Below, one piece after another: positions 1 to 21,322 of a stretch of DNA of 64,000 bases (positions are counted from its first letter, which is position 1; each line of letters starts with the position of its first letter). This DNA is from Gemmatimonadales bacterium (lineage in GTDB: Bacteria; Gemmatimonadota; Gemmatimonadetes; Gemmatimonadales; GWC2-71-9): assembly GCA_039794085.1 (NCBI GenBank), contig JBDIWC010000006.1, forward strand, positions 14,262 through 78,261. The letters run 5' to 3'. The position numbers were made by a program, and so were the translations under genes. The notes beneath the pieces were generated by a model. It did not search any database, had not been told where the DNA came from, and worked only from the letters and a program-made list of their open reading frames with translations.

Positions 1-141
1 CAGGCGGGGGCCCGGGGCAACCTGGTTCCGGATGCGTGGCTCGCCGCCCTCGCCCTCGAGCAGGGATGCGAGTTCATCACCACGGACCGGGACTTCGCGC
101 GCTTCCCCACCCTGCGGTGGCGTCACCCGCTCACGGGGTGA
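1..141 (+). CDS. PIN-domain (VapC-like) toxin, C-terminal fragment cut by window edge
   Basis: Frame 1 reads ...NLVPDAWLAALALEQGCEFITTDRDFARFPTLRWRHPLTG*, the typical C-terminal end of PIN/VapC toxins; stop TGA 139-141. Confidence 0.6.
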   Translation, partial: QAGARGNLVPDAWLAALALEQGCEFITTDRDFARFPTLRWRHPLTG

Positions 142-327
142 GGGAGACGCCTCGGACGGGGAGCCCCTGATCAAACGGACGGAGGACCAATCCGGCCAAA
201 TTATTAATAAGAGGTGATGCCACCTTCGCGGTGATGCTTTCGGGGCTCATCCGGGTTCGTGTAGGTGAGGGTGTGTGAGCGGAACTTCAACCCGCCGTTT
301 CCCGGGGCTCTTCGGCCTTCTTGGGGG

Positions 328-628
328 GGATTCTGGACTGAGTGGGGGGGCTCCGGTGGCCAGGCGGGCGGGGGAATAGCCACAAGAGGCACAAGAGGCA
401 CAAGAAACACGAGATCGAGGAGGGTGGCTCCGCCTCCACCACACCGACTCCACCCGGGACCGGCCTGGGCAGGATTCCATCTGAGTCATCCGTGCCATCC
501 GCAGTCTCTTCCCAAGGAGGTGTGGCGTTCCGGTCGGCGGCTTTGTGCCTTTTGTGCTTTTGTGGTTGGCTTTCGGGGTGAGGGGAAGCGCTCGGGCTGA
601 ACACGAGCCCATGCCAAAGCCTGAAGAG
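328..628 (+). repeat. Copy A of a structured repeat: long imperfect hairpin whose arms are 3x tandem 9-mers (CACAAGAGG-like), with conserved 5' and 3' flanks
   Basis: Left arm 380-407 (CCACAAGAGGCACAAGAGGCACAAGAAA) is complementary, with G-T positions, to right arm 541-565 (CTTTGTGCCTTTTGTGCTTTTGTGG). Flanks 328-379 and 566-628 align by eye to the reverse complement of 21323-21538. Confidence 0.7.
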
Positions 629-721
629 CCTCCATTCTGAGGGCCGTGTGCGGACGGCCCTGATCGCCCGTAACGGTTTCTCCGTATACCTTTCCCCCGA
701 CCCCGCATATGGAGCCCTGCC

Positions 722-2044
722 ATGACCCTCTCCCGCCGCTCGTTCCTGGGAACGGCTGGCGTCGCCGGCCTTGCCCTCGCCTCGGCGCGCTGTGCCCCCG
801 CTCCGGACGCCCGCGATTCCACCCCTCTTCCCCCGCTCGACCGTCCCACCGGTTCACCGGAAGCCGTCGCCCGGGACGAGGCCTACTGGCGGCGCGTCGC
901 GGCCCACTACCGGGTGTCCTCCGAGATCACCAACCTGGAGGCGGGCTATTTCGGCATGATGGCGGCGCCGGTGCTGGCGGAGTATCACCGGCAGATCGAC
1001 CGGGTCAACCTCGAGAGTTCCCGGTACGCCCGCGGGGCGTGGGGAGAGGAATCCGCCGGGGCCCGCGAGCGTCTGGCCGGTTTTCTCGGAGCCGCACCGG
1101 AGGAGCTGGTGTTCACCCGCAACGCGACCGAGGCGCTCCAGCGTCTCATCGTGCAGTACAACAAGCTGGCCCCCGGGGATCAGGTGATGTGCGCCGACCT
1201 GGACTACGGGGCGATGCAGTTCGCCATGGATGCCCTCGCCGAGCTTCGGGGTGTCACGGTGGTACGGATCGAGTTTCCGGAACCGGCCACCCGGGACGCC
1301 GTCGTGGAGATGTACGCCGAGGCGCTCCGGACTCACCCCCGGGTTCGGCTGCTCCTCCTCACCCATCTCAACAACAAGACCGGCCTGATCATCCCGACCC
1401 GGGAGATCGTGGCGATGGCCCGGGAGCGGGGGGCCGACACCATCGTCGACGCCGCCCACTCCTTCGGTCAGTGCGACCTGACGCTCCGGGACATCGGCGC
1501 CGATTTCGTGGGCCTGAACCTGCACAAGTGGCTCGGCGCCCCGATCGGTGTCGGAGCGATGTACATCAAGGCCGATCGCCTGCCGGACATCGACCGGATG
1601 CTGGGGGACGACGGACCCCTCGACCGGATCGAGAGCCGGATGCACACCGGCACCGCCAACTTCGCCACCTATCTGACAGTTCCCGCTGCCCTGGCCTTTC
1701 ATGAGTCGGTGGGGCCGGCGTACAAGGCGGCCCGGGTGCGCCACCTCCGCGACCTCTGGGTCGGGGCCGTGCGCGGAACGCCGGGCATCGACCTTCTGAC
1801 TCCGGACGATGCGGATCTCGTGGCCGCCATCACCTCGTTCCGGCTTCACGGCCGGACCGGGAAGGAGGAGAACCAGGCGATCGTGAGGGAGCTGTTCGAA
1901 CAGCACCGGCTCTTCACGGTGTGGCGCACGGGACTCTCCCGGGGGGATTGCGTACGGGTGACCCCGGCCCTCTACAACACCCCGGCAGATGCCGAGCGTC
2001 TCGCCGTGGCGCTCCGGGGAATGGCTGGTCGAGGGGCCGTGTAG
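722..2044 (+). CDS. Class V aminotransferase / cysteine desulfurase-isopenicillin-N epimerase-like PLP enzyme with Tat signal
   Basis: 440 aa ORF. N-terminus MTLSRRSFLGTAGVAGLALASA is a twin-arginine signal. HKWLGAPIGVG PLP-lysine region is typical of the aminotransferase class V fold. Confidence 0.85.
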   Translation: MTLSRRSFLGTAGVAGLALASARCAPAPDARDSTPLPPLDRPTGSPEAVARDEAYWRRVAAHYRVSSEITNLEAGYFGMMAAPVLAEYHRQIDRVNLESSRYARGAWGEESAGARERLAGFLGAAPEELVFTRNATEALQRLIVQYNKLAPGDQVMCADLDYGAMQFAMDALAELRGVTVVRIEFPEPATRDAVVEMYAEALRTHPRVRLLLLTHLNNKTGLIIPTREIVAMARERGADTIVDAAHSFGQCDLTLRDIGADFVGLNLHKWLGAPIGVGAMYIKADRLPDIDRMLGDDGPLDRIESRMHTGTANFATYLTVPAALAFHESVGPAYKAARVRHLRDLWVGAVRGTPGIDLLTPDDADLVAAITSFRLHGRTGKEENQAIVRELFEQHRLFTVWRTGLSRGDCVRVTPALYNTPADAERLAVALRGMAGRGAV

Positions 2045-2197
2045 TCCCTCACGGACAGGATCGGACACAAGACGGCAACGATTTTTTGGGAGACGCCCGG
2101 AAACCCTCACGGGCAGTCTGTTTGCCGGCGCATGGGAAGGCATCCAACTTGAGGCATCTGGTGCATTCGCGTCGCGGAGCGCCGTGACCAGGCGATT

Positions 2198-2253
2198 GGT
2201 GTTTCCCGGGGCTGACGCCCCTTGCTCGGCCCGGGGAGGTGGCTCGCGCCACC
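2198..2253 (+). repeat. 56-nt REP-like double-hairpin repeat, copy 1
   Basis: GGTGTTTCCCGGGGCTGACGCCCCTTGCTCGGCCCGGGGAGGTGGCTCGCGCCACC. Near-identical to 11145-11200. Contains hairpins GGGGC-TGAC-GCCCC and GGTGGC-TCGC-GCCACC. Confidence 0.7.
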
Positions 2254-2415
2254 AAAAACAGCGACGACACCGGCCGTGTGAACGGCCTCCCGCCGCCGAG
2301 CCCGGGGCGAAAGCCCCGGGGAACCCCTGCGAAACGCCGACGCGCCTCTCTGGTTCCGGCTCTGCCGGCTCAGGGGATCTGTAATCGATCGCCACCTTGT
2401 GCAGGTAATACGAAT

Positions 2416-2434
2416 GTGTTACCGTGTGTAACAC
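2416..2434. promoter_or_regulatory. Inverted repeat (putative VapB operator) abutting the vapB start codon
   Basis: GTGTTAC-CGTGT-GTAACAC perfect 7-bp arms ending 1 nt before ATG 2435. Possible TTGTGC(2397)-N17-TACCGT(2420) promoter would give a near-leaderless transcript. Confidence 0.45.
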
Positions 2435-2725
2435 ATGGCAGACGAACACCTGACCCTCCGGCTCCCCACCCACCTCGCCCGGGCCCTGACCCGATGGGCC
2501 GACGCGCGCGACCTCCCCAAGTCCCGGGTGGTTCGGGAAGCGATCGCCCGGTACCTCGACGCGCCCACCGGAGGAGACCGGGGACCAGCCGGCTTGACCG
2601 CCCGAACCCTGGGCCAACGGTGGGCGGCACTCCCGCGACTCCATCCGGACGAAGCCGCCAACTTCGCCGACGATCTCTCCGCGAGCGCCGCCGAGATGCC
2701 ACCACCGTCCCCGCCGTGGGAGTGA
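2435..2725 (+). CDS. vapB: Ribbon-helix-helix (CopG/VapB-type) antitoxin
   Basis: 96 aa. LTLRLPTHLARALTRWADARDLPKSRVVREAIARYL is an RHH motif. Stop overlaps the downstream PIN gene start (GTGA). Confidence 0.8.
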   Translation: MADEHLTLRLPTHLARALTRWADARDLPKSRVVREAIARYLDAPTGGDRGPAGLTARTLGQRWAALPRLHPDEAANFADDLSASAAEMPPPSPPWE

Positions 2726-3132
2726 TTCTCGACACCTCGGTTCTCCTCGCGGCCGAGCGTGGTGCCCTCCGCTTTGAAGCGATGCTGGAAGAGTTGGGTG
2801 ATGTCGGGGTAGGCATGGCGGCGGTCACAGCCTCCGAGCTGCTGCACGGTTGCCTCCGGGCCGCTCACCCTGGCGTTCGAGCCCGTCGGTTCGCCTTTGT
2901 GGAGGGTCTGCTCGATACCATCCCGGTCCTTCCCTTCAGTCTGGCGGACGCCCGGCAACATGCGCAGGTCTGGGCTCATCTTGCGCCAGCCGGTTCTTTG
3001 ATCGGGGCTCACGATCTGTTGATTGCCGCCACCGCCCTGGCTCGGGGCCACCGGGTGGCCACCCTCAACCGGCGCGAGTTCGGCCGGGTTCCCGGTCTGC
3101 ACCTGGTCCCGCTGGGGCCTTTTCTTTCCTGA
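2722..3132 (+). CDS. vapC: PIN-domain ribonuclease toxin VapC
   Basis: GTG 2722. VILDTSVLLAAERG... (N-terminal acidic D), ...GAHDLLIAATALARGHRVATLNRREF. Classic PIN layout with 4-nt overlap to vapB. Confidence 0.8.
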   Translation: MILDTSVLLAAERGALRFEAMLEELGDVGVGMAAVTASELLHGCLRAAHPGVRARRFAFVEGLLDTIPVLPFSLADARQHAQVWAHLAPAGSLIGAHDLLIAATALARGHRVATLNRREFGRVPGLHLVPLGPFLS

Positions 3133-3202
3133 TCCTTGCCATCGTTCGGCGATGGACGATACGTTCATTCACCTGTCCGGTTCTCCTTTTTTGGAGCCAC
3201 GC

Positions 3203-4864
3203 ATGCGCCTGTCCTTCCTCACCCTCCCCCTCCTCGTTGCCGCCTGTTCCCCCCAGGGTCCTGACGAGGGAACTCGATCCGACGACGGCACCGAGAATCT
3301 CCTCGCTGCCTACACCACGGTCCGGCTCGACGCCGACCTGAGCGGGCTCACCGATTCGGCCCGTCGCATGCTTCCGCTCCTGATCGAAGCCGCGCGGGAG
3401 ATGGATGAGATCTACTGGCTCGAGGTGTCCGGACCTTCGGACAGCGTGCTCTCTGCCATGCCCACGCCGACCCTGCGGCGGTTCGCCGAGATCAATTACG
3501 GCCCCTGGGACCGGCTCAACGGCAACCAGCCCTTCGTGTCCGAGGTCGGAGCCATGCCCCTCGGCGCCAACTTCTACCCCCACGACATCACCACGGCGGA
3601 ATTCGATTCCGCGGCACGCGCCGCTCCCGATGGCGGGGCTGCCTTGCGCAGTCTGTACACTCTGGTCCGCCGGGACGGCCAGGGACGTCTGACCGCGGTG
3701 CCCTACCGGGTGGCGTTTCGCCCCCAGGTGGGGCGGGCGGCGGCTCGGCTGCGAGAGGCCGCGCTCCTGGCTCAGGATGCCGGCCTCCGGCGCTACCTCG
3801 AGCTCCGCGCCGAGGCGCTGCTGAGCGATGACTATCAGCCCAGTGACCTGGCGTGGATGGACATGAAGACCAACCCGATCGATGTCGTCATCGGCCCGAT
3901 CGAGACCTACGACGACCAGTTGTACGGGGCCAAGGCGGCGCATGAGGCGTACGTGCTGGTCAAGGACCAGGTCTGGAGCGATCGGTTGAGCCGGTATGCC
4001 GCGCTGCTTCCGTCGCTGCAGCGCGGGCTCCCCGTGCCGGACGCCTACAAGCGGGAGACGCCGGGAACCGATTCCGATCTCAACGCCTACGACGTGCTCT
4101 ACTATGCCGGCCAGGCCAACGCCGGATCGAAGACGATCGCCATCAACCTCCCCAACGACGAGGAGGTTCAGCTGGCCAAGGGAGCCCGCCGGCTCCAGCT
4201 CAAGAACGCGGTGCGCGCCAAGTTCGACCAGATCCTCCTGCCGATCGCGGATCTGCTCATCGCGCCCGACCAGCGGGAGTACCTCTCGTTCGACGCCTTC
4301 TTCGAGAACACGATGTTCCACGAGGTGGCCCACGGGCTCGGAATCAAGAACACCGTGACCGGCGGGCGCACGGTGCGGGAGGCACTGCAGGAGCAGGCCT
4401 CGTCGCTCGAGGAGGGGAAGGCCGATGTCCTGGGCCTCCACATGATCACCGCCCTGACGGACCGGGGCGAGCTGGGGGAGAAGGACATCCGGACCAACCA
4501 GGTCACCTTTCTGGCGGGCATCTTCCGGTCGGTCCGGTTCGGTGCCGCGAGCGCGCACGGCCGGGCCAACGTGGCTCGGTTCAACTACTTCGAGGAGATG
4601 GGCGCCTTTACCCGCGATTCCACCACCGGAACCTATCGGGTGAACTTCGACCGGATGCGCCTCGCCACCGACTCGCTGTCGGCCAGGATCCTGCGATTCC
4701 AGGGAGACGGGGACCTCGACGGAGTGCGGGCGTGGATGGACTCCGTGAGCACCATCCGGGCCACCCTCCAGGCCGATCTCGACCGGCTCGCCACGGCGGG
4801 GATCCCGGTGGACATCGTCTTCGAGCAGGGGCCCGAGGTCCTGGGGCTCCCGGCGGCCCGCTGA
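3203..4864 (+). CDS. M49 (DPP III)-like zinc metallopeptidase lipoprotein
   Basis: Start chosen at MRLSFLTLPLLVAACS (lipobox). FHEVAHGLG (HExxH) and EEGKADVLG, which resembles the second M49 motif EExxAE/D. Confidence 0.65.
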   Translation: MRLSFLTLPLLVAACSPQGPDEGTRSDDGTENLLAAYTTVRLDADLSGLTDSARRMLPLLIEAAREMDEIYWLEVSGPSDSVLSAMPTPTLRRFAEINYGPWDRLNGNQPFVSEVGAMPLGANFYPHDITTAEFDSAARAAPDGGAALRSLYTLVRRDGQGRLTAVPYRVAFRPQVGRAAARLREAALLAQDAGLRRYLELRAEALLSDDYQPSDLAWMDMKTNPIDVVIGPIETYDDQLYGAKAAHEAYVLVKDQVWSDRLSRYAALLPSLQRGLPVPDAYKRETPGTDSDLNAYDVLYYAGQANAGSKTIAINLPNDEEVQLAKGARRLQLKNAVRAKFDQILLPIADLLIAPDQREYLSFDAFFENTMFHEVAHGLGIKNTVTGGRTVREALQEQASSLEEGKADVLGLHMITALTDRGELGEKDIRTNQVTFLAGIFRSVRFGAASAHGRANVARFNYFEEMGAFTRDSTTGTYRVNFDRMRLATDSLSARILRFQGDGDLDGVRAWMDSVSTIRATLQADLDRLATAGIPVDIVFEQGPEVLGLPAAR

Positions 4865-4910
4865 ACCCGAGTCCGCATCGGCCGTCGACCTCTCCGCGCG
4901 GCCCCCGGAA

Positions 4911-5669
4911 ATGCTGACACTCGTTCTCCTGGCCTTCGTGGCCTCGATGGCGGGGAGCGCCATCAACAGCATCGCGGGGGGGGGCACGCTCGTCACCTTT
5001 CCCGCCATCGTGGCGCTCGGACTCCCTCCCCTCACCGCCAACGCCACCAGCACCGTGGGGCTCTGGCCCGGGGCGGTGGGAAGCATGTGGGGATACCGTT
5101 CTCACCTCACGCACTCCAGACCCTGGCTGGTCGGCCTGACCCTGCCGAGCCTCCTCGGCGGGGGCATCGGAGCGGTCCTGCTCCTCAGCACCGGCGAGGA
5201 TCGCTTTGCCCGGATCGTTCCGTTCCTGGTGCTCGTGGCCACGATTCTTTTCACGTTCCAGGGTCCCCTGCTCCGCTGGTTGGGACACACACCGCGGCAG
5301 GCGGGGGCTCGGCCGGGCGGCGCCTTCCTCGCCGTGCAATTCGCGGTGGGGATCTATGGAGGGTACTTCGGCGCGGGGATCGGCATCCTGATGCTGGCCG
5401 CCCTGGAGTGGATGGGACACCGGCACATCCATGTCATGAACGGACTCAAGAACTGGGGGGGGCTCTGCATCAATGCGGTGGCCGCGGGGCTGTTCATCGC
5501 CGGGGGGATCGTGCATTGGCCGGTGGCGATCGCGATGGCGGGGGGAGGATTGGTCGGGGGCTACGCGGGTGCCAGGGCGGCGCAGCGCGTCGAGCAGGCG
5601 ACGGTACGACGGGCCGTGGTGTTGGTCGGGTTCGCGGCATTCGTCTGGCTGCTGTTTCGGCCGCTCTGA
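4911..5669 (+). CDS. TSUP/TauE-SafE family anion exporter (DUF81)
   Basis: 252 aa polytopic membrane protein. N-terminal SAINSIAGGGTLVTFPAIVALGLPPLTANATS and duplicated C-terminal GGYFGAGIGILM motifs are typical of TSUP. Confidence 0.8.
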   Translation: MLTLVLLAFVASMAGSAINSIAGGGTLVTFPAIVALGLPPLTANATSTVGLWPGAVGSMWGYRSHLTHSRPWLVGLTLPSLLGGGIGAVLLLSTGEDRFARIVPFLVLVATILFTFQGPLLRWLGHTPRQAGARPGGAFLAVQFAVGIYGGYFGAGIGILMLAALEWMGHRHIHVMNGLKNWGGLCINAVAAGLFIAGGIVHWPVAIAMAGGGLVGGYAGARAAQRVEQATVRRAVVLVGFAAFVWLLFRPL

Positions 5670-5712
5670 AGGCGGGAGGCGAGTGTCACTTCATTATTGG
5701 CCGGATCAAAGA

Positions 5713-6120
5713 TTACCTCCGCATCCGGTCCACCAATTGACGAGGGAGCAGCACGGGAACCGACAGGGACCCGCGCTTCGGCTGGAAGTGTCTGGTATTT
5801 CCGGTGATGATTGCGTCCGCCATTCCGGCGACCGCCACCTCCACAAAGACACGGTCATCGGGGTCCGGGAGGGTCAGCTTCAGTGGAGGGGCCACCACCG
5901 GTTCCGCGATCCGCTCCAGTGCATCAAGAAGAATCCTCCGCTCGCGGGGGTCGAATCGAAACGCCGGGCGCGCGGTCACCTCATCGTACTCCGCGAAGAT
6001 CCGGGAGTCGGCAAGGAGGGTCACGGCGCCCTGGAGCACGAGGTGAAGGACCTGGTCCGGCGTTCCCCCTCCGGTGAGCATCGCGGACACCAGGACGTTG
6101 GTGTCGAGAACGATCCGCAC
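5713..6120 (-). CDS. PIN-family toxin (PIN_3 / TIGR00305-like)
   Basis: MRIVLDTNVLVSAML...DPDDRVFVEVAVAGMADAIITGNTRHF. Lies downstream of a Phd-like antitoxin. Confidence 0.8.
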   Translation of the reverse strand: MRIVLDTNVLVSAMLTGGGTPDQVLHLVLQGAVTLLADSRIFAEYDEVTARPAFRFDPRERRILLDALERIAEPVVAPPLKLTLPDPDDRVFVEVAVAGMADAIITGNTRHFQPKRGSLSVPVLLPRQLVDRMRR

Positions 6121-6130
6121 CGCGAGACTC

Positions 6131-6439
6131 CTACTGGTTGGTTTCGCGTGCCCGGCGGGCCCGGCGCGACGATCGGATTTCGCGGGTGATCGCCCCCTGC
6201 GTCAGCCCCGCGGTGCCTTCCCGCCGTGCCTCGGCCTGGAGCCGAGACAGCGCCAGGAGCGCCCGTCCCCTCCGCCAGGCGTCGAGCACCGTGGTGGCGT
6301 CACCCTCCTCCACCGGAATGAGCAACGCCCTGGTGGTTCCGTCGGACACCAGCGACAATGGTTCGCCCTCGGCGAGGCGCTCGAAGACGCGTCCTGGAGT
6401 GTTGCGCAGTTCGCGATAGGTAATCGGTTTGCCCGTCAT
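6131..6439 (-). CDS. Phd/YefM-like antitoxin
   Basis: 102 aa. MTGKPITYRELRNTPGRVFERLAEGEPLSLVSDGTTRALLIPVEE has a Phd/YefM-type N-terminus. 10 nt upstream of the PIN gene. Confidence 0.7.
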   Translation of the reverse strand: MTGKPITYRELRNTPGRVFERLAEGEPLSLVSDGTTRALLIPVEEGDATTVLDAWRRGRALLALSRLQAEARREGTAGLTQGAITREIRSSRRARRARETNQ

Positions 6440-6612
6440 GACGCGCCTCCCGTGTAGCGTATATGGCTACATTAACGCTACACGGTTGACCCATGGAGCG
6501 CAACCCCTCGCGCCGATGCCACTTGTCCGGTCGGCGTCGCGGGAGGACCCCGGGAACGGGGCTTTCGCGCTATGTATTGGCAGGTCGCTGTGTCGACCGT
6601 ATGGTTCGCCGG

Positions 6613-6840
6613 ATGAGAACGACGCTGACGATCGATGAGACGGTGATGGCCCGGCTTCGCCGCGAGGCCGCGCGAACCGGTCGAACCATGTCCACCGTGG
6701 TGGAGATGGCTCTGCGCCAGGTGCTTCAAGACAAGCCCGCTGCGGTGGCACTTCCCGAACTTCCGAGCTTTGACAGCGGAGGAGCCCTGGTGGATCTGGC
6801 CGATCGCGAGGCACTCCATCAGGCTATGGCGGGCCCGTGA
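6613..6840 (+). CDS. VapB-family (PF09957-like) antitoxin with no adjacent toxin
   Basis: MRTTLTIDETVMARLRREAARTGRTMSTVVEMALRQVL. Stop TGA 6838-6840 overlaps GTG 6837 of the next ORF (rlpA-like), not a toxin gene. Confidence 0.7.
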   Translation: MRTTLTIDETVMARLRREAARTGRTMSTVVEMALRQVLQDKPAAVALPELPSFDSGGALVDLADREALHQAMAGP

Positions 6841-7499
6841 CGAGGGCGGAGTGTACGCGACAAGCCGTGGACCGGGCCGAGATCAGGTGGAGAGTGATCG
6901 GTCTCCTCCTGACGCTGGGTCTGGGCGGGTGTGCCAGCATGGGACGCGGACGGTCTCCCGATCTCCCCGCACCCGTGACGGACGGCTGGGTCGAAGAGGG
7001 AGTCGCCTCCTGGTACGGGGAACCCTTCCATGGGCGCCGCACCGCCTCCGGTGAAGTCTACGACATGCACGCACCCACCGCGGCGCACCGGACTCTCCCC
7101 TTCGGCACCCGGGTGCGGGTCGAGAATCTGTCCAACGGCCGCTCCACCACGCTGCGTATCACCGACCGAGGCCCGTTCGCAAAGAACCGGATCCTGGACG
7201 TGTCCCGGTGGGGTGCCGAGGAGCTTCGTCTCATCGGACCCGGGGTGGCGCGGGTCAGGATCACGGTGCTCGATGCCCCGGCCTCCCCACGGTGTTGGGA
7301 GATCCAGGCGGGGGCTTTCGCCGATAGCGCGAACGCCGACCGCCTCCGTGTCCGACTCCTCGATGATCAGTTCCCGACACGGATCGACACCGGGCCCGGC
7401 GGTCTCCATCGGGTGCGAGTGGGGCCGTTCGAAGACCGAGGTGTAGCGGAGAGTGCCGCGCGGAGGGTGGACGGTCTCCTGCTGGGGTGCGGCGCGTAG
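6837..7499 (+). CDS. rlpA: Septal ring lytic transglycosylase RlpA-family lipoprotein (DPBB + SPOR domains)
   Basis: Lipobox LTLGLGGC. ASWYGEPFHGRRTASGEVYDM...LRITDRGPF (DPBB). C-terminal WEIQAGAFADSANADRL...HRVRVGPF (SPOR). True start may be downstream of 6837. Confidence 0.8.
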   Translation: MTRAECTRQAVDRAEIRWRVIGLLLTLGLGGCASMGRGRSPDLPAPVTDGWVEEGVASWYGEPFHGRRTASGEVYDMHAPTAAHRTLPFGTRVRVENLSNGRSTTLRITDRGPFAKNRILDVSRWGAEELRLIGPGVARVRITVLDAPASPRCWEIQAGAFADSANADRLRVRLLDDQFPTRIDTGPGGLHRVRVGPFEDRGVAESAARRVDGLLLGCGA

Positions 7500-7542
7500 A
7501 ACGGACCAGGTGACCGGCATGGATACCATATGACATTGCGTG

Positions 7543-7567
7543 GTCAGACTAGTCTGACTAGTCTGAC
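7543..7567. promoter_or_regulatory. Palindrome plus direct repeat (three GTCWGAC half-sites) in an AT-richer island with a TATACT -10-like box
   Basis: GTCAGACTAGTCTGACTAGTCTGAC. 16-bp perfect palindrome 7543-7558 with TAGTCTGAC repeated in tandem. TATACT at 7568-7573. Upstream of a degraded PIN gene. Confidence 0.4.
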
Positions 7568-7638
7568 TATACTGCAATGATGTCCGAAGAATACTCTCTT
7601 TGCGACACCAAGGCCGAAGCTCTCTGCCCTGGTTCGCC

Positions 7639-7994
7639 ATGTCCGGGAATGACGGGGCGTACCTGGACAGTTCCGTCGTCACCGCGATTGCCTTCGTCGA
7701 GCCGGGGGCGGGCGACCTACGGGCGCGTCTCCAACAGTATGCGCAGCTTGATTCCGCCCCCTGCCGGAGGCGGAGGTGCGATCAGCCGCCAGGCGCGAAG
7801 GAGTGCCTCTCCCTCCGGCCGGAGATCATCCGGGTGCTGGACACGGGTTACGTGCGCGCGCAGACTGCTGGCATCTGGCGACGGCGCTGTACCTCTCGCC
7901 GGAGCCGGAGCAGTTGATGTTCCTCACCCTCGATCAGCGCCAGCGCGACGTGGCCCAGCGGCTGGGATTCGCTCTGGGCGAGTTCACCTCGTAA
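7639..7994 (+). pseudogene. PIN-domain (VapC-like) toxin gene interrupted by a 1-nt frameshift at a C5 run
   Basis: Frame 1: MSGNDGAYLDSSVVTAIAFVEPG...QLDSAP. After C-run 7757-7761 the homology continues in another frame: LPEAEVRSAARREGV...LRARADCWHLATALYLSPEPEQLMFLTLDQRQ...*. Confidence 0.65.
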
Positions 7995-8159
7995 ACGTCG
8001 CCTTCCCCGCCGGGGCGGACGACGAGCAATGAGCAGGGTTCACTGTTCCACGTGTGGTGCGCGGAGACGGTGCCGGTCGCCGCGGGGGCGCTCATTCCTC
8101 GTTGTTCATGGATCCGGGGGAGGGGTTAGCCGTAAGGGCCGTGCGACCGGACCTCCAGG

Positions 8160-8225
8160 CGTCGTTCCCCTCTCCCACCTGTGTGAGAGAGGGGTCAGGG
8201 GGGGTCAGGGGTGAGGGCAACGACG
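8160..8225. repeat. REP-like stem-loop of the CCCCTCTCC...GAGAGGGG / GGGTCAGGGGTGAGGGC type
   Basis: CGTCGTT...AACGACG outer stem. Inner CCCCTCTC-N11-GAGAGGGG followed by GGGTCAGGGG x2. Resembles widespread intergenic REP sequences. Confidence 0.5.
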
Positions 8226-8353
8226 ACCCGGGCCAGGAGAGAGAGTCCGGGCCAATCGGTCAAGGGTGAAGCGTCTGGCCGTTTTCCACCGGGAGGGCTA
8301 ACTTGTGACAGATCGCTGACACATCATTTCCCGGTCCCCCACCAGGGAATCCC

Positions 8354-11032
8354 GTGACCACTCTGGACCGCCTGCGCGCCGCCCTGTCCGACCGCTACGC
8401 TCTCGAGCGGGAGCTCGGCGCGGGCGGCATGGCCACGGTCTATCTGGCCCGGGACCTCAAGCATGACCGCCAGGTAGCCCTCAAGGTACTGCGACCGGAA
8501 CTCGCCGCGGTCATCGGTGCCGAGCGGTTCCTCAGCGAGATCAAGACCACGGCCAACCTCCAGCACCCCCACATCCTCCCCCTGTTCGACTCCGGCACCG
8601 CCGACGGCACCGTCTTCTACGCGATGCCGTTCGTCGAGGGGGAGAGTCTCCGCGACCGGATCCAGCGGGAAAAGCAGCTCCCCGTGGCCGACGCCCTCCG
8701 GATCGCCACCGAGGTGGCGAGTGCCCTCGACTACGCGCACCGGAAGGGGATCGTCCACCGCGACATCAAGCCCGAGAACATCCTGCTCCACGATGGTCAG
8801 GCCCTCGTGGCGGATTTCGGCATCGCGCTGGCCGCCAGCCGGTCGGAGGGGGGGAGTCGGCTCACCGAAACCGGGATGTCGCTCGGGACACCCTATTACA
8901 TGAGCCCCGAGCAGGCAATGGGAGAGCGGGAGATCGACGGCCGGACCGACATCTACGCCCTGGGCTGCGTGCTGTACGAGATGCTCACGGGAGAGCCCCC
9001 GTTCACCGGTCCCACCGCCCAGGCGATCGTCGCGCGGGTGATGACCGAGTCCCCCCGCGGTATCTCGATCCAGCGCCACACCGTTCCGCCCCATGTGGAG
9101 CAGGCGATTGTGAGGGCGCTGGAAAAGCTCCCCGCCGACCGGTTCGCCACCGCCGCCGACTTCACGACGGCCCTCACCACACCGGGGTCCGGCACGGCAT
9201 CCGGGACGGGGCCGAGCGCCCTCCCCCGGGTGCGCCGTCGCCAGCGTGCCGTTCTCCTCGCGGCCGGAGCCGGATTGCTGGTGACGGGTGCACTGCTCGG
9301 AGCCCTGGTCCACCGAGGCAATGCCCCCGATCCATCCGTCACCCGGCTCACCATGCTCCTCCCCGACACCCTCGGCATCCTCCCCATCGCCACCCACCGC
9401 CTGGCGATCTCGCCGGATGGACGGCGGATAGCCTGGATCGGAGGCCCGGGCGGCCAGCCCGGCATCGTGGTGCGGGATTTCGACCAGGCCGACGCCCGCT
9501 ATCTGGCGGGAACCGAGGGAGCAAACGCGCCGTTCTTTTCCCCGGATGCCGCCACGATCGGGTTCTTCACCGGGAGAGGAGGATCGGGCAGCCTGAAGAC
9601 CATTCCGGCCACGGGCGGCGCGGTCCAGACCGTGGTGGCCAGGGGCGCCGAGCCGTGGGGCGGCGATTGGTCGGCAGACGGAATGATCTACTACACCGGA
9701 ACCGAGTCCCGGATCTTCAAGGTACCCGCCACCGGCGGCGCGGTGACCCCGGTCACGACCATCGATTCCACCCAGCCCGGCGTGACCGAGCACGACTTCG
9801 TGGACGTCCTTCCGAACGGGAAGGGAGCGGTGATGCAGCTCTGGAAGGGCAGCGTGGGGAGCAACGAGATCGGCGTTGTCTCCTTCGAGACGGGCCGGGT
9901 CACGTCGCTCGCCACAGGCACCTACCCGAGGTATCTGGCGACGGGTCATGTCCTGTTCGGAACCTCGGACGGCCGGCTCCATCTCCTCCCCTTCGACCAG
10001 GACCGGCTCGAGGCCACCGGACAACCCACCGTGGTCCTCGAAGGTGTGCCGGTGGACGGCTTCACCGGGACACTGCAGTTCGCCATCTCCGACAATGGAA
10101 CGTTTATCCATCAAACCCGCGAGGGAATGGGGCGCTTCGTGCCGTCCTGGGTCAGCCGGGATGGTTCCGCCACGGTGATTGACTCCACCTGGGAGGTGGC
10201 CGGTCTGGAGGGAATCGCGCTCTCTCCCGACGGATCCCGGGTTGCCGTCACCCAGTCTGCGACCGATGGCTCGCAGATCTGGGTCAAGACCCTCCCGCAG
10301 GGGCCATTCACACGGCTCACTTTTGCCGGCCCGGATTCGGACCGTCCGGCCTGGTCGCCGGATGGCCGGGAGGTCGGCTTTCTGAGCCGGGCCCAGTCGA
10401 CGCCGCGGGAAGCCTGGGCCCAACGCGCCGATGGGAGCGGTAACGCCAGAATCGTGGCTTTTCATGCGGAAGGCATGGACGAGTTTGACTGGTCCCGAGA
10501 TGGAGGCTGGTTCATCGGGAGAACTTTCGGCTCCGGGGCCGGCAGCAGGCGGATCCTGGCACGGGAGGCCGGCCCCGACACCACCATGCGGGTTCTGATC
10601 GAGGGCCCCGGCGACTTGTACGCCCCTTCGCTCTCTCCCGACAGCCGGTGGCTCGCCTACGTCTCGGATGAGTCGGGCCGGGCGGAGGTCTATGTGAGGC
10701 CCTTCCCCGATGTGGAGACCGCGCGATGGCAGGTGTCGGTGGATGGAGGGCTGGAGCCCCTCTGGAGCCGGACCGGAGATGAGTTGTTCTATCGGACAGA
10801 GCGCGGCGAGATGATGGCCGTCCGGGTGACGGCGGACGAGGCCTTCGCCAGTCAGTCCCCCGTCACGTTGTTCAACGATCCGACGGCCCTGACGAGTCCC
10901 TACCACCGCCAGTACGACGTCGCCGCGGACGGCCGGTTCCTCATGATCCGCTCGCTGGCCGGGAACTCGAGCCAGCTCAAGGTTGTCTTCAACTGGTTCA
11001 CCGAGATCCGGGAGAGATTCGGAGGCCGTTGA
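8354..11032 (+). CDS. Ser/Thr protein kinase fused to a TolB-like WD40 beta-propeller
   Basis: 892 aa. GAGGMATVYLA...VALK, HRDIKPENILL, DFGIA, SPEQ (Hanks motifs). One TM segment, then repeated PDG/SPDG propeller repeats. Confidence 0.9.
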   Translation: MTTLDRLRAALSDRYALERELGAGGMATVYLARDLKHDRQVALKVLRPELAAVIGAERFLSEIKTTANLQHPHILPLFDSGTADGTVFYAMPFVEGESLRDRIQREKQLPVADALRIATEVASALDYAHRKGIVHRDIKPENILLHDGQALVADFGIALAASRSEGGSRLTETGMSLGTPYYMSPEQAMGEREIDGRTDIYALGCVLYEMLTGEPPFTGPTAQAIVARVMTESPRGISIQRHTVPPHVEQAIVRALEKLPADRFATAADFTTALTTPGSGTASGTGPSALPRVRRRQRAVLLAAGAGLLVTGALLGALVHRGNAPDPSVTRLTMLLPDTLGILPIATHRLAISPDGRRIAWIGGPGGQPGIVVRDFDQADARYLAGTEGANAPFFSPDAATIGFFTGRGGSGSLKTIPATGGAVQTVVARGAEPWGGDWSADGMIYYTGTESRIFKVPATGGAVTPVTTIDSTQPGVTEHDFVDVLPNGKGAVMQLWKGSVGSNEIGVVSFETGRVTSLATGTYPRYLATGHVLFGTSDGRLHLLPFDQDRLEATGQPTVVLEGVPVDGFTGTLQFAISDNGTFIHQTREGMGRFVPSWVSRDGSATVIDSTWEVAGLEGIALSPDGSRVAVTQSATDGSQIWVKTLPQGPFTRLTFAGPDSDRPAWSPDGREVGFLSRAQSTPREAWAQRADGSGNARIVAFHAEGMDEFDWSRDGGWFIGRTFGSGAGSRRILAREAGPDTTMRVLIEGPGDLYAPSLSPDSRWLAYVSDESGRAEVYVRPFPDVETARWQVSVDGGLEPLWSRTGDELFYRTERGEMMAVRVTADEAFASQSPVTLFNDPTALTSPYHRQYDVAADGRFLMIRSLAGNSSQLKVVFNWFTEIRERFGGR

Positions 11033-11144
11033 GCGGTCCTGAGACTGGTCGGTCCTCGCCACATGAGCATGGTGGTGCCGGAGCCCGAATGGGGTCACAC
11101 AAAGGGATGTCGGAAACCCGGGATCGATGTGCTCGGTCGTGACA

Positions 11145-11200
11145 GGTGTTTCCCGGGGCTGACGCCCCTTACTCGGCCATGCGAGGTGGCTCACGCCACC
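11145..11200 (+). repeat. 56-nt REP-like double-hairpin repeat, copy 2
   Basis: GGTGTTTCCCGGGGCTGACGCCCCTTACTCGGCCATGCGAGGTGGCTCACGCCACC. About 49/56 identical to 2198-2253. Lies in a convergent intergenic gap. Confidence 0.7.
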
Positions 11201-11243
11201 CGGAGCAGGATGGGCTTTCAGGGGGTGATCATTGGTCAGGAGT

Positions 11244-14153
11244 TCATGACCCTCCCGGGGTGAGTAACAAGCTGGTGATCCGGGGCAGCAGCAGCTTGAC
11301 CACCCGCACCGGCAGCCCACTGGTGAAGCGGAACCGTTCCGCGGCGGCCCCCTCGACATAGGCCGTGGCGACCCCATAGAACCGGTCCCCGATGTAGAAC
11401 ACGAAGGTCGCGGTCCGATTCCCTTCGTTCTGGCCGGTGCCGGTCTTCCCTCCGATCACCACCACCGAGCTGTCCGCCGCCCGCACCGAGCCCCGCAGCA
11501 GTGACGCGGTGCCCGATTCGACCACGTCGGCCATGGCCATCCGGGCCACCCCCGCCACCTCCGGGGGAAGCACTCTCGTTCCGGGAAGGGTGGTGCTTCG
11601 CAGCACCACCTCGTAGGGCGTTCCCATCGCAAAGTGCAGCTCCTGTACCCTGACGACCGGATTCCGGATCCCGTCCGCCACCAGTATCCCGACCAGCTCG
11701 GCGAGCGCACCGGGCCGGTCACCCGAGCTCCCGATGGCGCTTGCGAGCGAGGGGACCATGTCCGGATAGGGATACCCGAGGCGCCGCCAGGCCGCGCGAA
11801 TCGGCGCGAAGGCGTGCCGTTCCAGAATGATCCGCAGGGCGCGATCCTGCGCGCGTCGCACCGCAGTCGTGTTCCGAAACAGCCACGCGTAAGCTTCCCG
11901 CCTCGCTTGCACTCCCGCGGTCTGAATCTGATCCAGGGTGGCCTCCGGTGTGTCGCGGAGTTGCGATACCACCCAGAGTTCGAGCGGATCCACCCCGGTC
12001 ACGAACGCCCGGTCCGCCAGGCCGAGCCCCTCCGGAAGGGCCCGGCGAATCCGCTGCGCCTCGGCTGTCGAGAGCGTATCGGGGCCGAATCGTCCGGCCA
12101 TCTCGGCCCCCAGTCCTCCGGCAGAGGTGGCGGGCGCCACCGCCAGAACCATGCGGGCCCAGCGCTGGGGAGTGACACGACCACCCAGCATCAGGGTGAA
12201 ACTGGAATCCCCACCGATGGTCCGGTGCTTCCGGTAGTATTGCGCCACCAGAGTCCGGCCTTCCGCCTCGGCAAACTGTTCCAGAAACACCCGGCGCGCG
12301 GGATGCCCCGGATCCTCCAGAAGGCCGGTCCCGTACTGTGGCAGCCGGTGCTCATGGTAGCGCACCAGATCCCGCATCAATCGGATGAAGACCAGGTTTA
12401 TTGAGTGCCGGAGACCCTCCCGCACGGTCGGCGACTGGTGGTCAAAGACACGATCAAAATTGCCGAAGACATGGACCCCACCACCGGTGAAGAAGCGCTC
12501 CGAGGGATTCGCCGAATACCTCCTTTCCATCGCGGCCTCCAGGGTCGCGCGGAGGTCCACCCCGGGGTGGGCATCCCGGAACTCGCGGGCCCACCGACTG
12601 ATCGGATCCTGTGCGGTCCGAGCCCGGGAGGTCGAGTCCAGGCCGGTTGTGTCGGAGAGTTCCGCATGCAATTCCGCAACGATTTCGAGATAGGTCACCA
12701 GGGTGCGGAGTTTTGCGGTGGACCCCAACTCGAGCCGTGCCCCGGTGTTGAGGTCGAACGGCCGATCGAGGTTGTCCACCTGCACCCGGATCGCGTTGCC
12801 GCGAGGTGTACGTTCATAGAGAACGATGCTGTAGGCCACCTGGCTCAGATCGGAGCGACCCAGCTGGCGCTCGGTGTCCAGACCCGACGTGCGCACGAAG
12901 TCGGGATCGCCCATCTGGCGGATCAGGCCGGTGGCTGCCCTCTGAGCTGACTCATCGATGGTGATGCGGGCCGTGAGATCAAACCGATCCAATTCATACA
13001 GACTGCGGGCTCCGAGGAGGGCCCGAAGGCGGGAGCGGGTGGCGTTGATCGCCTTGCGTTCCACGAACGAGACTGGGGGCGACGGGGGTGCGGTCGCGCG
13101 GACCTCGACCGTCACACCCAGCGCCCGTCGGGTCAGGAGTTCCGGCACCGTACCGGCGGTGCCGAGCAGCCGGAGGTGAGAGTCGGTAATCGCGGCGAGA
13201 GCCCTCCGCCCCTCCGCTGTCTGGAGGTAGTAGGCCGGGCGGCGCTGGGCAATCAACAACATGACGACCGCGCGATAAGCCTCGGCGGCCTCCCCCGGGA
13301 CGACGCCGGACATGGCCGCGTGCAGCCGTGCATCGGACGAATCGGCATCGAGCCCGAACCAGACGTGGAGACCATCCCGGAGTCCGATCACCTCGCCATA
13401 GCCTGGGAAAGCTCCCACGGGCAGGGCGTTCAGGTAGTCGGTGAGGATGACCCGTCGGACCTCGGTGGTCCGCGTTCCTTCCAGGTACGACCGCAGGGTG
13501 GCTGACGCCATCTGCCGCGCCTTGTCACCCGGGGTGCGGGTAATGCCACCCGGGGCATGGCGAAGCTTTTCGAGCTGCGTCGCCAGGGTGCTGGCACCGA
13601 AGCGACCACCACCACCCAGCAACTTGCCCCCGGCGAAACTTGCCACCGCCGCGACAAACCTGTCCCACTCGATCGCGGGGTTTCGGAAGGGAGACCGGTC
13701 ATCGAACAGCTCCCGGTTCTCAAGGAAAAGAAGGGTTTCGCGGACCGGTCCCGGAACTTCGTCGAAAGAGGCATAGACGTGTTCGGGAAAGTGGTTCACC
13801 GAGATCAGGGTGCCGTCTCGGCCCATCAGCCGCAGTCCCGCCTGGGTCTTCTCGCGATACGGAGGGTAGAGTCCCCAGCCGGCGATCTGGTTGAAGCGAT
13901 CGGATATCCTCGCCTGGGATGCAACCACGAATCCACGGGACTCCAGCCGGTCGACAAGCGAGGGGAGGGCCCGGTACCCCAGGCGAATGTCGAAGGGACC
14001 GTTCGGGGCACGGGCAGGGTTCGGGCTGGGTCCGGGCTCGAGGGCGTAGGAGATCCCCTGGACATACCGGGCGAGGAGCCGGGCACAGGCCCAGGCCGCC
14101 GCCTCGGAATAGACCACGACGAGCACCACGGACACCGAGACGAGTGTCCGCAC
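11244..14153 (-). CDS. Penicillin-binding-protein-like protein with GT51 transglycosylase domain
   Basis: 969 aa. N-terminal TM. FLENRELFDDRS...GASTLATQLEK (GT51-like motifs). C-terminal GGKTGTG (KTG box). Confidence 0.7.
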   Translation of the reverse strand: MRTLVSVSVVLVVVYSEAAAWACARLLARYVQGISYALEPGPSPNPARAPNGPFDIRLGYRALPSLVDRLESRGFVVASQARISDRFNQIAGWGLYPPYREKTQAGLRLMGRDGTLISVNHFPEHVYASFDEVPGPVRETLLFLENRELFDDRSPFRNPAIEWDRFVAAVASFAGGKLLGGGGRFGASTLATQLEKLRHAPGGITRTPGDKARQMASATLRSYLEGTRTTEVRRVILTDYLNALPVGAFPGYGEVIGLRDGLHVWFGLDADSSDARLHAAMSGVVPGEAAEAYRAVVMLLIAQRRPAYYLQTAEGRRALAAITDSHLRLLGTAGTVPELLTRRALGVTVEVRATAPPSPPVSFVERKAINATRSRLRALLGARSLYELDRFDLTARITIDESAQRAATGLIRQMGDPDFVRTSGLDTERQLGRSDLSQVAYSIVLYERTPRGNAIRVQVDNLDRPFDLNTGARLELGSTAKLRTLVTYLEIVAELHAELSDTTGLDSTSRARTAQDPISRWAREFRDAHPGVDLRATLEAAMERRYSANPSERFFTGGGVHVFGNFDRVFDHQSPTVREGLRHSINLVFIRLMRDLVRYHEHRLPQYGTGLLEDPGHPARRVFLEQFAEAEGRTLVAQYYRKHRTIGGDSSFTLMLGGRVTPQRWARMVLAVAPATSAGGLGAEMAGRFGPDTLSTAEAQRIRRALPEGLGLADRAFVTGVDPLELWVVSQLRDTPEATLDQIQTAGVQARREAYAWLFRNTTAVRRAQDRALRIILERHAFAPIRAAWRRLGYPYPDMVPSLASAIGSSGDRPGALAELVGILVADGIRNPVVRVQELHFAMGTPYEVVLRSTTLPGTRVLPPEVAGVARMAMADVVESGTASLLRGSVRAADSSVVVIGGKTGTGQNEGNRTATFVFYIGDRFYGVATAYVEGAAAERFRFTSGLPVRVVKLLLPRITSLLLTPGGS

Positions 14154-16926: not shown

Positions 16927-17490
16927 CTACTCGCCCCACGCGGTGCGGAAATACGCCGAGAGATCGATGCGAAGCGGAGGCACCTCTGTTTCTGGCTGCC
17001 AGGTGAGTTCCTGATCGGCGATGTCGGGATGGTCGGCCCCGGGGGTCCAGACCTCCACCAGCCGGGCATCGAGATCCACGATCCAGTACGCCGGAACGCC
17101 GGAGCGTTGATAGAGCCGACGCTTGGTGACCCGGTCATGCCGTGCGGTGGCGGGAGACAACACCTCCGCGACCAGAAGCGGAATACCATACTCGTCCCAT
17201 TCGCGCGGGGGCCGTCCCTCCACCATGCGACCCACAAAGAGATCGGGCTGGAGCAGCTGTCCGGCGTGGAAGTCGAGGTCGGCGGGAGAAATGCAGAGGC
17301 CCCCGATCCGGTGTGCACAAACATACGGGTCGATCAGGAGGAGAAGCTCCACCACGCCGCGCTGGTGGAGACCGCGAGGGCTCGGGCTCACGAGAAGCTC
17401 ACCGTCCACGAGTTCGTAGCGGTTTCCGTCGTCGGGGAGGGCGAGCACCTCCTCGCGGGTCCAGTGGCGGGCGACGGCAGGCATACCCAT
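16927..17490 (-). CDS. Uma2 (DUF820) family putative endonuclease, paralogue 1
   Basis: [38 protein letters not shown]...PDLFV...PLLVAEVLSPAT...D...K...Y...GVPAYWIVD. PD-(D/E)xK-like Uma2 signature. Confidence 0.85.
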   Translation of the reverse strand: MGMPAVARHWTREEVLALPDDGNRYELVDGELLVSPSPRGLHQRGVVELLLLIDPYVCAHRIGGLCISPADLDFHAGQLLQPDLFVGRMVEGRPPREWDEYGIPLLVAEVLSPATARHDRVTKRRLYQRSGVPAYWIVDLDARLVEVWTPGADHPDIADQELTWQPETEVPPLRIDLSAYFRTAWGE

Positions 17491-17520
17491 ACGTTACGCT
17501 CGGCGACTGAAAGGAGGCAA
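17491..17520 (-). promoter_or_regulatory. Conserved Uma2 promoter-like element (TTGCCT-N18-TAACGT) abutting the ATG
   Basis: Minus strand reads TTGCCTcctttcagtcgccgagcgTAACGT|ATGGGTATG. Same architecture upstream of all three Uma2 genes. Confidence 0.4.
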
Positions 17521-17588
17521 GGGGGCGGCATGTCCCCGAACTTCGCCCTCCCTCGCGGGGACGGATAACCCCAACGACGCGGGCCGGA

Positions 17589-18164: not shown

Positions 18165-18194
18165 AGGTTACGCTCGGCGACTGAGAGGAGGCAA
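18165..18194 (-). promoter_or_regulatory. Conserved Uma2 promoter-like element (TTGCCT-N18-TAACCT)
   Basis: Minus strand reads TTGCCTcctctcagtcgccgagcgTAACCT|ATGGGTATG. Confidence 0.4.
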
Positions 18195-18341
18195 GTCCGA
18201 AGGATGCGGGCCGGATCAATCCATCGAGGTCCTGGGACAGTCCCACCCACCGGGGAGGGTGGCGCGCTCCTCCTGTCTCCCACATTCTTCTGTCCCGGAC
18301 ACCCATGTCCCGCTCACCAACCAGAGAACCCGGCAGCCCGC

Positions 18342-21180: not shown

Positions 21181-21322
21181 GCCCCAAGCTGCGGGTCATC
21201 CCCTCCCCGGTCGGTGACGCACGTCACGTACCGCGAGGAGTGCCCCCACCAGTGACTCAGGAAGCTCTGATCTGACGCGGCCACCACAGATCGTCATTCC
21301 CGCCACGCGGGAATCCATTTTT

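Follow-up and report, generated by a model that had tools for sequence, protein, structure and literature searches.

Several known systems resemble the DNA elements treated here. Doublets of repetitive extragenic palindromic (REP) sequences that form hairpins (REPINs) lie between genes in many copies, and the REP-associated tyrosine transposase (RAYT) that goes with them is encoded by a small gene flanked by inverted repeats. Correia/NEMIS elements and the miniature inverted-repeat transposable elements (MITEs) of bacteria are palindromic inserts of small size that encode nothing and lie close to the ends of genes, and their transcripts can fold into long hairpins; the RNA of Correia elements is cut by RNase III. 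In the 23S rRNA intervening sequences of the Leptospira/Coxiella type, which encode a "four helix bundle / S23p" protein, the insert is accommodated in an essential transcript thanks to a stem. We here describe two elements of related build, copy A and copy B, in a stretch of 64,000 nucleotides from a Gemmatimonadales bacterium (GCA_039794085.1, contig JBDIWC010000006.1, positions 14,262 to 78,261 of the forward strand; in the following "the window"). Each of them is an inverted pair of arrays of tandem 9-mers. In our judgement these hairpins are probably, though by no means certainly, diverged and decaying copies, devoid of a gene, of a family of selfish palindromic cassettes that carries a GxxExxY nuclease gene; they are not a regulatory RNA of exported-protein genes. 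The family is present in many copies in several phyla. Its arms flank a gene, sit in operons, enclose remnants of that gene and are nested in each other; target-site duplications are missing, and in the lineage of the window the elements are variably present and decay.

The left array of copy A is built from three tandem 9-mers, CACAAGAGG, CACAAGAGG and CACAAGAAA, at 381-407 of the plus strand; the arm found by pattern scan, CC followed by these units, spans 380-407 (+). An original prediction, made from the letters of the window, had let the array begin one nucleotide too early, at 380, and had placed its inverted counterpart correctly at 541-565. On the minus strand, the sequence of this right arm is CCACAAAAG CACAAAAGG CACAAAG. 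Copy B is inverted relative to copy A. Its left arm, CCACAAGAGG CACAGAAGT CACAAGA, occupies 21458-21483 of the minus strand, and its right arm, at 21387-21412, has the plus-strand sequence CCACAAGAAG CACAAAAGA CACAAAA, both again by pattern scan. A degenerate pattern derived from the four arms, CCACAARAR-N0-1-CACARRAGNCACAARR, matches the window four times, precisely at these arms, with 0 matches expected from 100 shuffles. The inverted arrays of three 9-mers are thus real. With three mismatches allowed, the 64-kb window yielded no further copy.

Outside the window the arms are anything but rare. The pattern was scanned over the contigs of a collection with one genome per species and marks at least 118 loci, while a back-of-the-envelope estimate from information content predicts about two chance matches. 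That the element should have further copies elsewhere was therefore borne out, by these loci across phyla and by two copies in the closest relative of the window. The matches listed come from Acidobacteriota (Terriglobia, Pyrinomonadaceae, Vicinamibacterales), Verrucomicrobiota, Planctomycetota, Latescibacterota, Gemmatimonadota, Kiritimatiellia and others; among them, at least six loci share one chromosome, and at most loci a partner arm is close by. The first 26 nt of the left arm of copy A (380-405) equal the arm of a locus in a metagenome-assembled genome (MAG) of Pyrinomonadaceae exactly (L011; loci are cited by such numbers), and the left arm of copy B agrees in 25 of 26 positions with the arms of L043 and L076. 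The interest lies less in the two copies than in their family, whose 26-nt arm is nearly identical across Acidobacteriota, Verrucomicrobiota, Planctomycetota and Gemmatimonadota.

From the matches listed, 63 clean hairpins were extracted. Their stems measure 17-41 bp (median 28 bp) and are Watson-Crick-paired to 89.7%; the loops measure 3-139 nt in 57 of them. The family is defined by two inverted arms, each an array of two to four (or more) 9-mers in tandem that follow the scheme C-R-C plus purine-rich sequence (here CACAARAGN), and by outer ends that read CCAC...GTGG. The purine-rich arm may be the 5' one on either strand, and both copies of the window fall under this definition. What is conserved is the sequence of the 9-mers itself, far beyond the needs of pairing: column identity of the arms is 92%, and 91.4% of the cells are in standard pairs, as against 89.9% when the 3' arms are shuffled among the hairpins. 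Compensating changes, a hallmark to be expected of a selected stem in the original prediction, are few. A direct repeat at the junctions, i.e., a target-site duplication, was absent in 61 of the 63 hairpins. Hairpins of different flavours (different 9-mer sequences) are nested in each other's loops in L043, L048, L108 and copy A. In the literature we found no description of the arm sequence or of the hairpins, and none of the papers found to name GxxExxY or PF13366 deals with repeats; the family is apparently undescribed.

Not every match to the pattern is a member of the family. The 17 arm-pattern loci in viral contigs are nearly all coding PQE/PQK repeats (CCACAAGAGCCACAAGAG...) that have no partner arm, and the same coding artefact explains a few of the genome matches (L019, L020, L102). 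Apart from the 9-mers, tandem 7-mer hairpins (GACCAATGACCAATGACCAATGA...TCATTGGTCA) are seen in the same spacers (4015-4075 of the related contig L120 and ~8020-8050 of the window), and 7-mer arrays of GGCGAGA, GGGAGAC or TTGGGCG lie beside 9-mer arms in Latescibacterota and others (L026, L027, L046 and one Latescibacterota locus). Palindromes made of tandem units may thus form a superfamily that reaches beyond the 9-mers.

The clue to the nature of the family comes from its long-loop members. In five of the 63 hairpins (L004, L012, L017, L032, L119), whose loops measure 383-461 nt, a complete GxxExxY gene of ~125 codons fits exactly between the arms; in L002 a full gene adjoins an arm, the partner arm being weak. 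The open reading frame (ORF) of the long loops was assigned to TIGR04256 (E = 5e-33) and to PF13366 (PDDEXK_3). Three shorter loops contain partial GxxExxY fragments that adjoin an arm, C-terminal ones in L024 and L081 and an N-terminal one in L063. By inspection, many Terriglobia loops of 34-41 nt read on one strand as the last residues of the protein, ...LEIKKLV. These fragments in short loops point to an origin of the gene-less hairpins from cassettes by internal deletion.

A second sample was taken from the other side: GxxExxY genes were picked independently of the arms, and their flanks were examined, which yielded about a dozen cassettes. As a rule, tandem 9-mer arrays of other flavours were found in these flanks. 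In a Bacteroides (L147), inverted CACAGAGGA arms enclose the gene between radA and the gene of a FAD-dependent protein. Two viral contigs have the inverted arrays CGCAGAAAT (L134) and CGCGAAAAG (L135), and L048 has inverted CACAGATTT arms. In Gemmatirosa (L144), which belongs to the same order as the window, the gene stands between two complete CGCAGAGGA hairpins. Less regular cases are L149 with an inverted repeat of a single unit, L145 and L148 with arrays in direct orientation, and a Sphingomonas (L146) with a single arm between fabD and fabG. No array was seen around a homologue with 28% identity (L136/L137, two viral contigs with identical flanks). GxxExxY proteins with a mutual identity of 45% or more go with the CACARARGG flavour, those with 37% identity or less with other flavours.

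The intact cassettes occupy short spacers between host genes and are directed like these: in every annotated case the GxxExxY gene runs in the direction of both neighbours. In L076, L167 and L171 the cassette fills the space from the stop codon of hsdR to the start codon of hsdM, the arms taking up the gaps of 30-38 nt. These three cassettes come from a Pirellulaceae MAG, a Nitrospirae MAG and a metagenome contig, and the C-terminus of HsdR is conserved in them (...DYVSLxxxAA*). Two readings offer themselves: operon and cassette move together, or this spacer is favoured as a target.

The GxxExxY protein itself has the makings of a nuclease. In 30 homologues the GxxExxY residues are invariant, and the E of this motif is followed by D...E-x-K, the catalytic residues of the PD-(D/E)XK type. 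An AlphaFold model is confident, with a predicted local distance difference test score of 93.4. Among solved structures it comes closest, at modest scores, to Cas4 (SSO0001), to lambda exonuclease and to the RecB-type nuclease domains of AdnAB/AddAB; Hjc resolvase, the tRNA-splicing endonuclease and the homing endonuclease I-Bth0305I (rank 48) score lower. The specific activity is not readable from such fold matches, and the PDB contains no relative detectable by sequence. A survey of the PD-(D/E)XK superfamily of 2012 listed PF13366 with function unknown and "multiple transfers" (PMC3424549).

How such a cassette could live is suggested by its build. The 9-mers would be the recognition sites of the cassette's own nuclease, because their sequence is held more tightly than pairing requires and because the flavour changes with the protein. 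In this limited sense the original proposal of an iteron-like array may be kept: the 9-mers resemble putative recognition sites. Cleavage by the nuclease would initiate the spread, and recombination or repair by the host would complete it, much as in homing. A homing-like spread would leave no duplication, and it would favour existing hairpins as targets. In the transcript of the host, the long stem would loop the insert out, perhaps to be cut by RNase III as in the intervening sequences of rRNA, which would limit polarity and, in general, harm to the operon. Gene-less hairpins would finally result from internal deletion, followed by drift.

The two copies of the window look like late products of such a process. 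Copy A matches copy B with 88% identity over 33 nt in the region of the 5' arm and with 73% over 90 nt of 3' arm and flank; also the 5' flanks can be aligned, so the flanks are indeed conserved between the copies, as had been noticed originally. The outer flanks lie at 328-379 and 566-628 (+) in copy A and at 21484-21538 (5') and 21323-21386 (3') of the minus strand in copy B. The 5' flank of copy A is a weak inverted version of the 3' flank, with which it pairs in the predicted fold, and the weak pairing of the outer flanks in such folds makes each element a single long imperfect palindrome. The 3' flank of copy A carries the motif GCTCnnGCTGnnCAnGAnCCCATGCC, which is common to all four Gemmatimonadales copies; six matches to it in a scan of metagenomes were all in coding sequence by inspection and thus due to chance. 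In the conserved 3' flank a promoter was considered and rejected: a sigma-70-like site is absent, and a sigma-54 site, judged by eye, does not fit the spacing GG-N10-GC.

The loops are unrelated, as had also been seen: that of copy A (406-540, +) measures ~135-139 nt, that of copy B (21413-21457, -) 45-49 nt. The nesting of flavours accounts for this complete difference. Inside the loop of copy A, at 477-504 (-), lies a half-array of a second flavour, CTGCGGATGG CACGGATGA CTCAGATGG. The corresponding inner hairpin is complete in the homologue of copy A in L120, where its arms are found at ~17454-17479 and ~17522-17547.

This contig (GCA_041741375.1) represents the closest relative of the window. 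It is syntenic with 696-11874 of the window at ~93% nucleotide identity and lacks copy A; two more copies of the element lie in 21 kb of its sequence. The B-like one (3790-3950), between convergent genes, has retained the loop and a left arm identical to that of copy B, while its entire right arm is deleted. The A-like one (~17290-17650) is turned the other way round and has a PIN gene and a kinase gene as neighbours; its arms are degenerate, and the right part of the copy A loop is preserved. The syntenic spacer of the window (8016-8264) has no copy. Public annotation calls a 231-amino-acid gene across the B-like element (3362-4057, minus strand), for which there is no Pfam match; it is probably a spurious ORF made by the repeat.

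Both sites of the window also have counterparts free of the element. Copy A is contained in a variable segment (160-695, +): by BLASTN, 2-159 and 696/720-759 match L142, L143 and L120, while 160-695 finds no match, and the relatives have at this place a HepT/MNT toxin-antitoxin pair and an aminotransferase upstream region. Aminotransferase orthologues of other Gemmatimonadales (95, 90, 88, 86 and 83% identical) are preceded by spacers of ~150-370 nt that contain no arm. Copy B is part of a segment of 461 nt (21261-21721, -), and the same site is empty in three related assemblies (L138, L139, L140). These have a permease with 92% identity, the same order of permease, 199-amino-acid protein and aldolase-SDR genes, and a spacer of 207 nt. 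The empty site reads ...ACCGAGGG|CTGAGTCC..., the filled one ...ACCGAAGA|CTATTAATAAGG...GAGCTTC|CTGAGTCAC..., and as a duplication the junction offers at most an ambiguous CT of 2 bp. In short, the copies of this lineage are scattered, dispensable and decaying repeats. That copies A and B might be the two ends of one large transposon, 21 kb apart, was discarded: relatives offer an empty or alternative site for each of the two separately, and 696-11874 is syntenic in L120, where A is missing.

We therefore read the two copies, with the same qualified confidence as stated at the outset, as MITE- or REPIN-like, non-autonomous remnants of a nuclease cassette family, whose mechanism of mobility we infer. 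Several observations speak against this reading. A search of the window in all six reading frames with a GxxExxY hidden Markov model (HMM) found nothing (best E = 2.2), the loop of copy A included, so that the two copies are gene-less as are 57 of the 63 clean hairpins, and no GxxExxY gene or remnant was seen in the ~100 kb of related contigs that were read. What ties the window copies to the cassettes is thus just the identity of the arms and the architecture. The sole GxxExxY cassette seen in the same order, that of Gemmatirosa, has a different flavour, CGCAGAGGA. The outer flanks common to A and B were not found outside the lineage (window, L120-L122); BLASTN of these flanks and of the copy A loop against the 118 family loci revealed no similarity past the arms. 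That the segment of copy B was inserted here, rather than deleted in the relatives, is suggested by its repeat content and not by polarisation with an outgroup. The co-variation of flavour and protein was seen in a sample of about a dozen cassettes. Finally, a GxxExxY gene between hsdR and hsdM in three organisms could mean a function for the host instead of selfish spread.

A host function is also the essence of the first rival explanation, which we consider unlikely: the hairpins could be domesticated repeats in the manner of REP sequences and bacterial interspersed mosaic elements (BIMEs) or of Correia elements, serving as RNase III sites, mRNA stabilisers, terminators or insulators, or as arrays for a nucleoid or regulatory protein. 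The strong conservation of the arm sequence across phyla, with the column identity of 92%, would fit, and so would the position of the hairpins in intergenic spacers and right after stop codons. RNase III has a stem-length requirement for its substrates, and stems of 17-41 bp would be long enough. On the other hand, the copies of the window's lineage are dispensable and decaying, and their positions are not conserved between relatives. Moreover, the stems are not followed by a U-tract (by inspection), and no intrinsic terminator was called at the main hairpins; a partial call fell in the right arm of copy B and a further call, on the other strand, at a small neighbouring hairpin described below. 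A wobble bias consistent for one strand is likewise missing.

Still less probable is a classical MITE, i.e., a deletion derivative of an insertion sequence with a DDE transposase, moved in trans via its terminal inverted repeats. Among the options of the original prediction it comes closest, since the elements are small, non-coding, palindromic and multi-copy, and filled and empty sites coexist among relatives. Sub-terminal tandem repeats, too, are transposase-binding sites in some transposons (Tn7, Mu, foldback elements). What did not hold is the rest of the definition. The target-site duplications expected of a plain MITE are lacking in 61 of the 63 hairpins and reduced to the ambiguous CT at copy B, and no transposase gene lies between or beside the arms of the long-loop members, the only recurrent gene there being PDDEXK_3. 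In addition, the homology between the copies extends past the arms into asymmetric flanks.

Named first among the original options was a structured non-coding RNA or a cis-regulatory 5' leader: on the co-oriented strand, the 26-bp stem with its G·U pairs would control a gene for an exported protein. The premises are correct in part. Copy A lies 94 nt upstream of the ATG of the aminotransferase gene (722), copy B ~143 nt upstream of that of the lipoprotein gene (21180), both are co-oriented with these genes, and both genes have export signals. Most of the arm differences are indeed G·U on this strand in both copies. The claim that they are exclusively so is roughly right and not exact: copy A has two to three G·T pairs, together with a G that is bulged out and, at the inner end, a single A·C, copy B, on its own strand, two to four G·T pairs and one to two transversion mismatches. 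Copy B also folds better than its shuffles (z = -3.37).

The opposite strand of copy B, however, does equally well (z = -3.31), and copy A is no better than its shuffles on either strand (z = -0.15 co-oriented, -0.09 opposite). Since both strands compare alike with their own shuffles, the lower folding energy of the co-oriented strand gives no strand preference. The G/A asymmetry is common to copies A and B, which means that it was inherited and counts as a single event. In the family, 37 hairpins have two or more transition mismatches; within them, the consistency of the wobble strand was 37 where 47 would be expected (P = 0.97), which argues against selection on an RNA from one strand. At the level of the family, the strand-specific G-T pattern thus lost its weight as a sign of RNA structure. 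Also Rfam 15 gave nothing at the gathering score: at a permissive threshold, the region of the window returned only a riboswitch match of 12 bits (E = 3.5) and the family hairpin L045 only generic hairpin and miRNA matches far below threshold, so that no family came near its threshold. Most damaging are the relatives. The element is missing in front of five or more aminotransferase orthologues and at the orthologous permease/lipoprotein locus. As for L120, its copies stand between converging genes or run antisense to the genes next to them, and in one of them the right arm is lost. Given these empty orthologous sites, the leader appears largely refuted, and we rate it as very unlikely. Hardly worth considering are small protein genes at 342-581 (+) and 21372-21509 (-), since their similar ends in both copies (N-terminal HKRHKRHK, C-terminal LCLLCF-WL) are just what the arms yield when both are read in the same frame, a like ORF exists on the opposite strand, the distance between the arms varies freely with no preference for multiples of three in total length (25/19/19 across the 63 hairpins), and the B-like copy of L120 lacks the C-terminal arm.

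Around the copies there are further small repeats. A lineage-specific mosaic of other small palindromes surrounds them, such as the hairpin ATTCCCGC...GCGGGAAT, and the 461-nt insertion of copy B itself suggests a mosaic of several small repeat modules. It contains a small G+C-rich hairpin (21293-21314), ATTCCCGCCACGCGGGAAT plus GAC, which resembles the dRS3-type repeats of Neisseria and which recurs after the B-like copy in L120 (~3925-3950). Near the other end of the insertion, at 21681-21691, the 11-nt GTCATTCCCGC forms the inverted partner of GCGGGAATGAC. The AT-rich 10-mer TATTAATAAG had been noticed 5' of both copies; it occurs exactly twice in the window, at 202-211 (+) and 21711-21720 (-), where 0.03 occurrences would be expected even with one mismatch allowed. 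The second occurrence is the very end of the insertion of copy B, its left one, and supplies the stop codon of the permease gene (TAA, 21715-21717). The first one sits 42 nt inside the breakpoint of the replacement near copy A. In none of 14 related loci, the relative's copies included, was TATTAATAAG found. CC(C/T)CTGATCAA accompanies both 10-mers in differing order (165-177 and 21693-21705).

Another G+C-rich palindromic repeat, GGTGTTTCCCGGGGCTGACGCCCCTT..., is present at 2198-2327 and 11145-11200 of the window (91% identical), the first copy forming a hairpin with 42-nt arms. It lies in ~384 nt (2044-2428) that L120 lacks between the aminotransferase gene and an RHH antitoxin gene. The putative lipoprotein gene 3' of copy B has lost the start codon used in a relative (ATG at 11524 of L138) via a 1-nt indel (window 21100-21180); it either starts 27 codons farther upstream, with the ATG at 21180, or is inactivated. 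Three paralogues of ~190 codons of the Uma2/DUF820 type, putative PD-(D/E)XK endonucleases, are encoded at 17075-18195 and 23142-23702, two in tandem and one 5.5 kb away; the tandem pair is also present in L138. The neighbourhood (window 1-3200 and 7300-8000; L120, L126, L142) is dense in toxin-antitoxin pairs, in the window VapC/PIN, RHH-PIN and PhdYeFM-PIN, to which the relatives add HepT/MNT and MazEF. Since these pairs vary between close relatives exactly at the repeat sites, the region is an indel hot spot.

For the window, the outcome is deflationary. The two hairpins would be remnants of selfish DNA, probably without a dedicated function, and an annotation as regulatory RNA of exported-protein genes is unwarranted. 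Their effects on the host appear as side effects: with the insertion of copy B the permease gene has received a new stop codon, and each of the two copies puts a stable hairpin into an intergenic transcript. Such hairpins also cause spurious ORFs, like the 231-amino-acid gene of L120, and assembly breaks in soil metagenomes.

Beyond the window, the huge GxxExxY/PDDEXK_3 family has obtained a first concrete and testable context: its genes would be operon-embedded cassettes bounded by inverted repeats of tandem 9-mers. A bolder idea, offered tentatively and held with somewhat less than even confidence, is that these proteins are the nucleases of an unrecognised class of mobile cassettes that spans phyla. 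Its members would consist of a promoter-less gene and of arrays recognised by the gene's own product; they would insert into operon spacers and hairpin loops with no duplication, be tolerated by looping out, and leave behind gene-less, REPIN-like hairpins.

Compared with known systems, the elements show both shared and differing features. Like iterons, the arms are tandem short repeats that resemble protein-binding sites, yet the units measure 9 bp instead of ~17-22 bp, the pairs are inverted and scattered over the chromosome, and neither a rep gene nor features of an origin lie near the arrays. With the attC cassettes of integrons they have in common a promoter-less small ORF and an inverted repeat, imperfect and with a loop of variable length, which acts as a folded hairpin. 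Here, however, the repeats stand on both sides of the ORF, and an IntI integrase or an attI-adjacent array is lacking: none of the neighbouring genes called at the loci read is integrase-like. The R''/R' core of attC is RYYYAAC/GTTRRRY; judged by eye only, such motifs are absent. From Correia/NEMIS elements and bacterial MITEs the family differs by the absence of a duplicated TA or other target, by the missing link to a DDE transposase and by its internally repetitive arms.

The ORF-bearing intervening sequences of 23S rRNA are similar in that inverted repeats on both sides of a small ORF pair into a long stem, and the cassettes described here sit within operons in a comparable way, their arms adjoining start and stop codons. 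The protein family is a different one, none of the loci read lies in rRNA, and excision at the level of RNA is suggested here by analogy only. Homing endonuclease genes of the PD-(D/E)XK type (I-Ssp6803I, I-Bth0305I) likewise are small selfish nuclease genes between host genes, with no target duplication and with a polymorphism of presence and absence, and I-Bth0305I is among the weak fold matches. Normally, however, they have neither flanking arrays of inverted tandem repeats nor large populations of gene-less hairpins.

There remains the REPIN/RAYT system with which we began. Both have intergenic palindromic doublets in many copies and a small gene between inverted repeats; in both, the flavours of the repeat follow the associated protein, and target-site duplications are absent. 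There are differences, too. The flanked gene here encodes a PD-(D/E)XK nuclease (PF13366/TIGR04256) and not an HUH Y1 transposase like the RAYTs, which resemble those of IS200/IS605; the arms are arrays of tandem 9-mers instead of one REP unit; the gene is itself multi-copy, with many paralogues, and the arm sequence spans several phyla. If the nuclease really recognises its own arrays, the cassettes would represent a new pairing of protein and repeat, analogous to that of RAYT and REPIN, and would supply sequence-specific nucleases whose 9-bp codes can be read.

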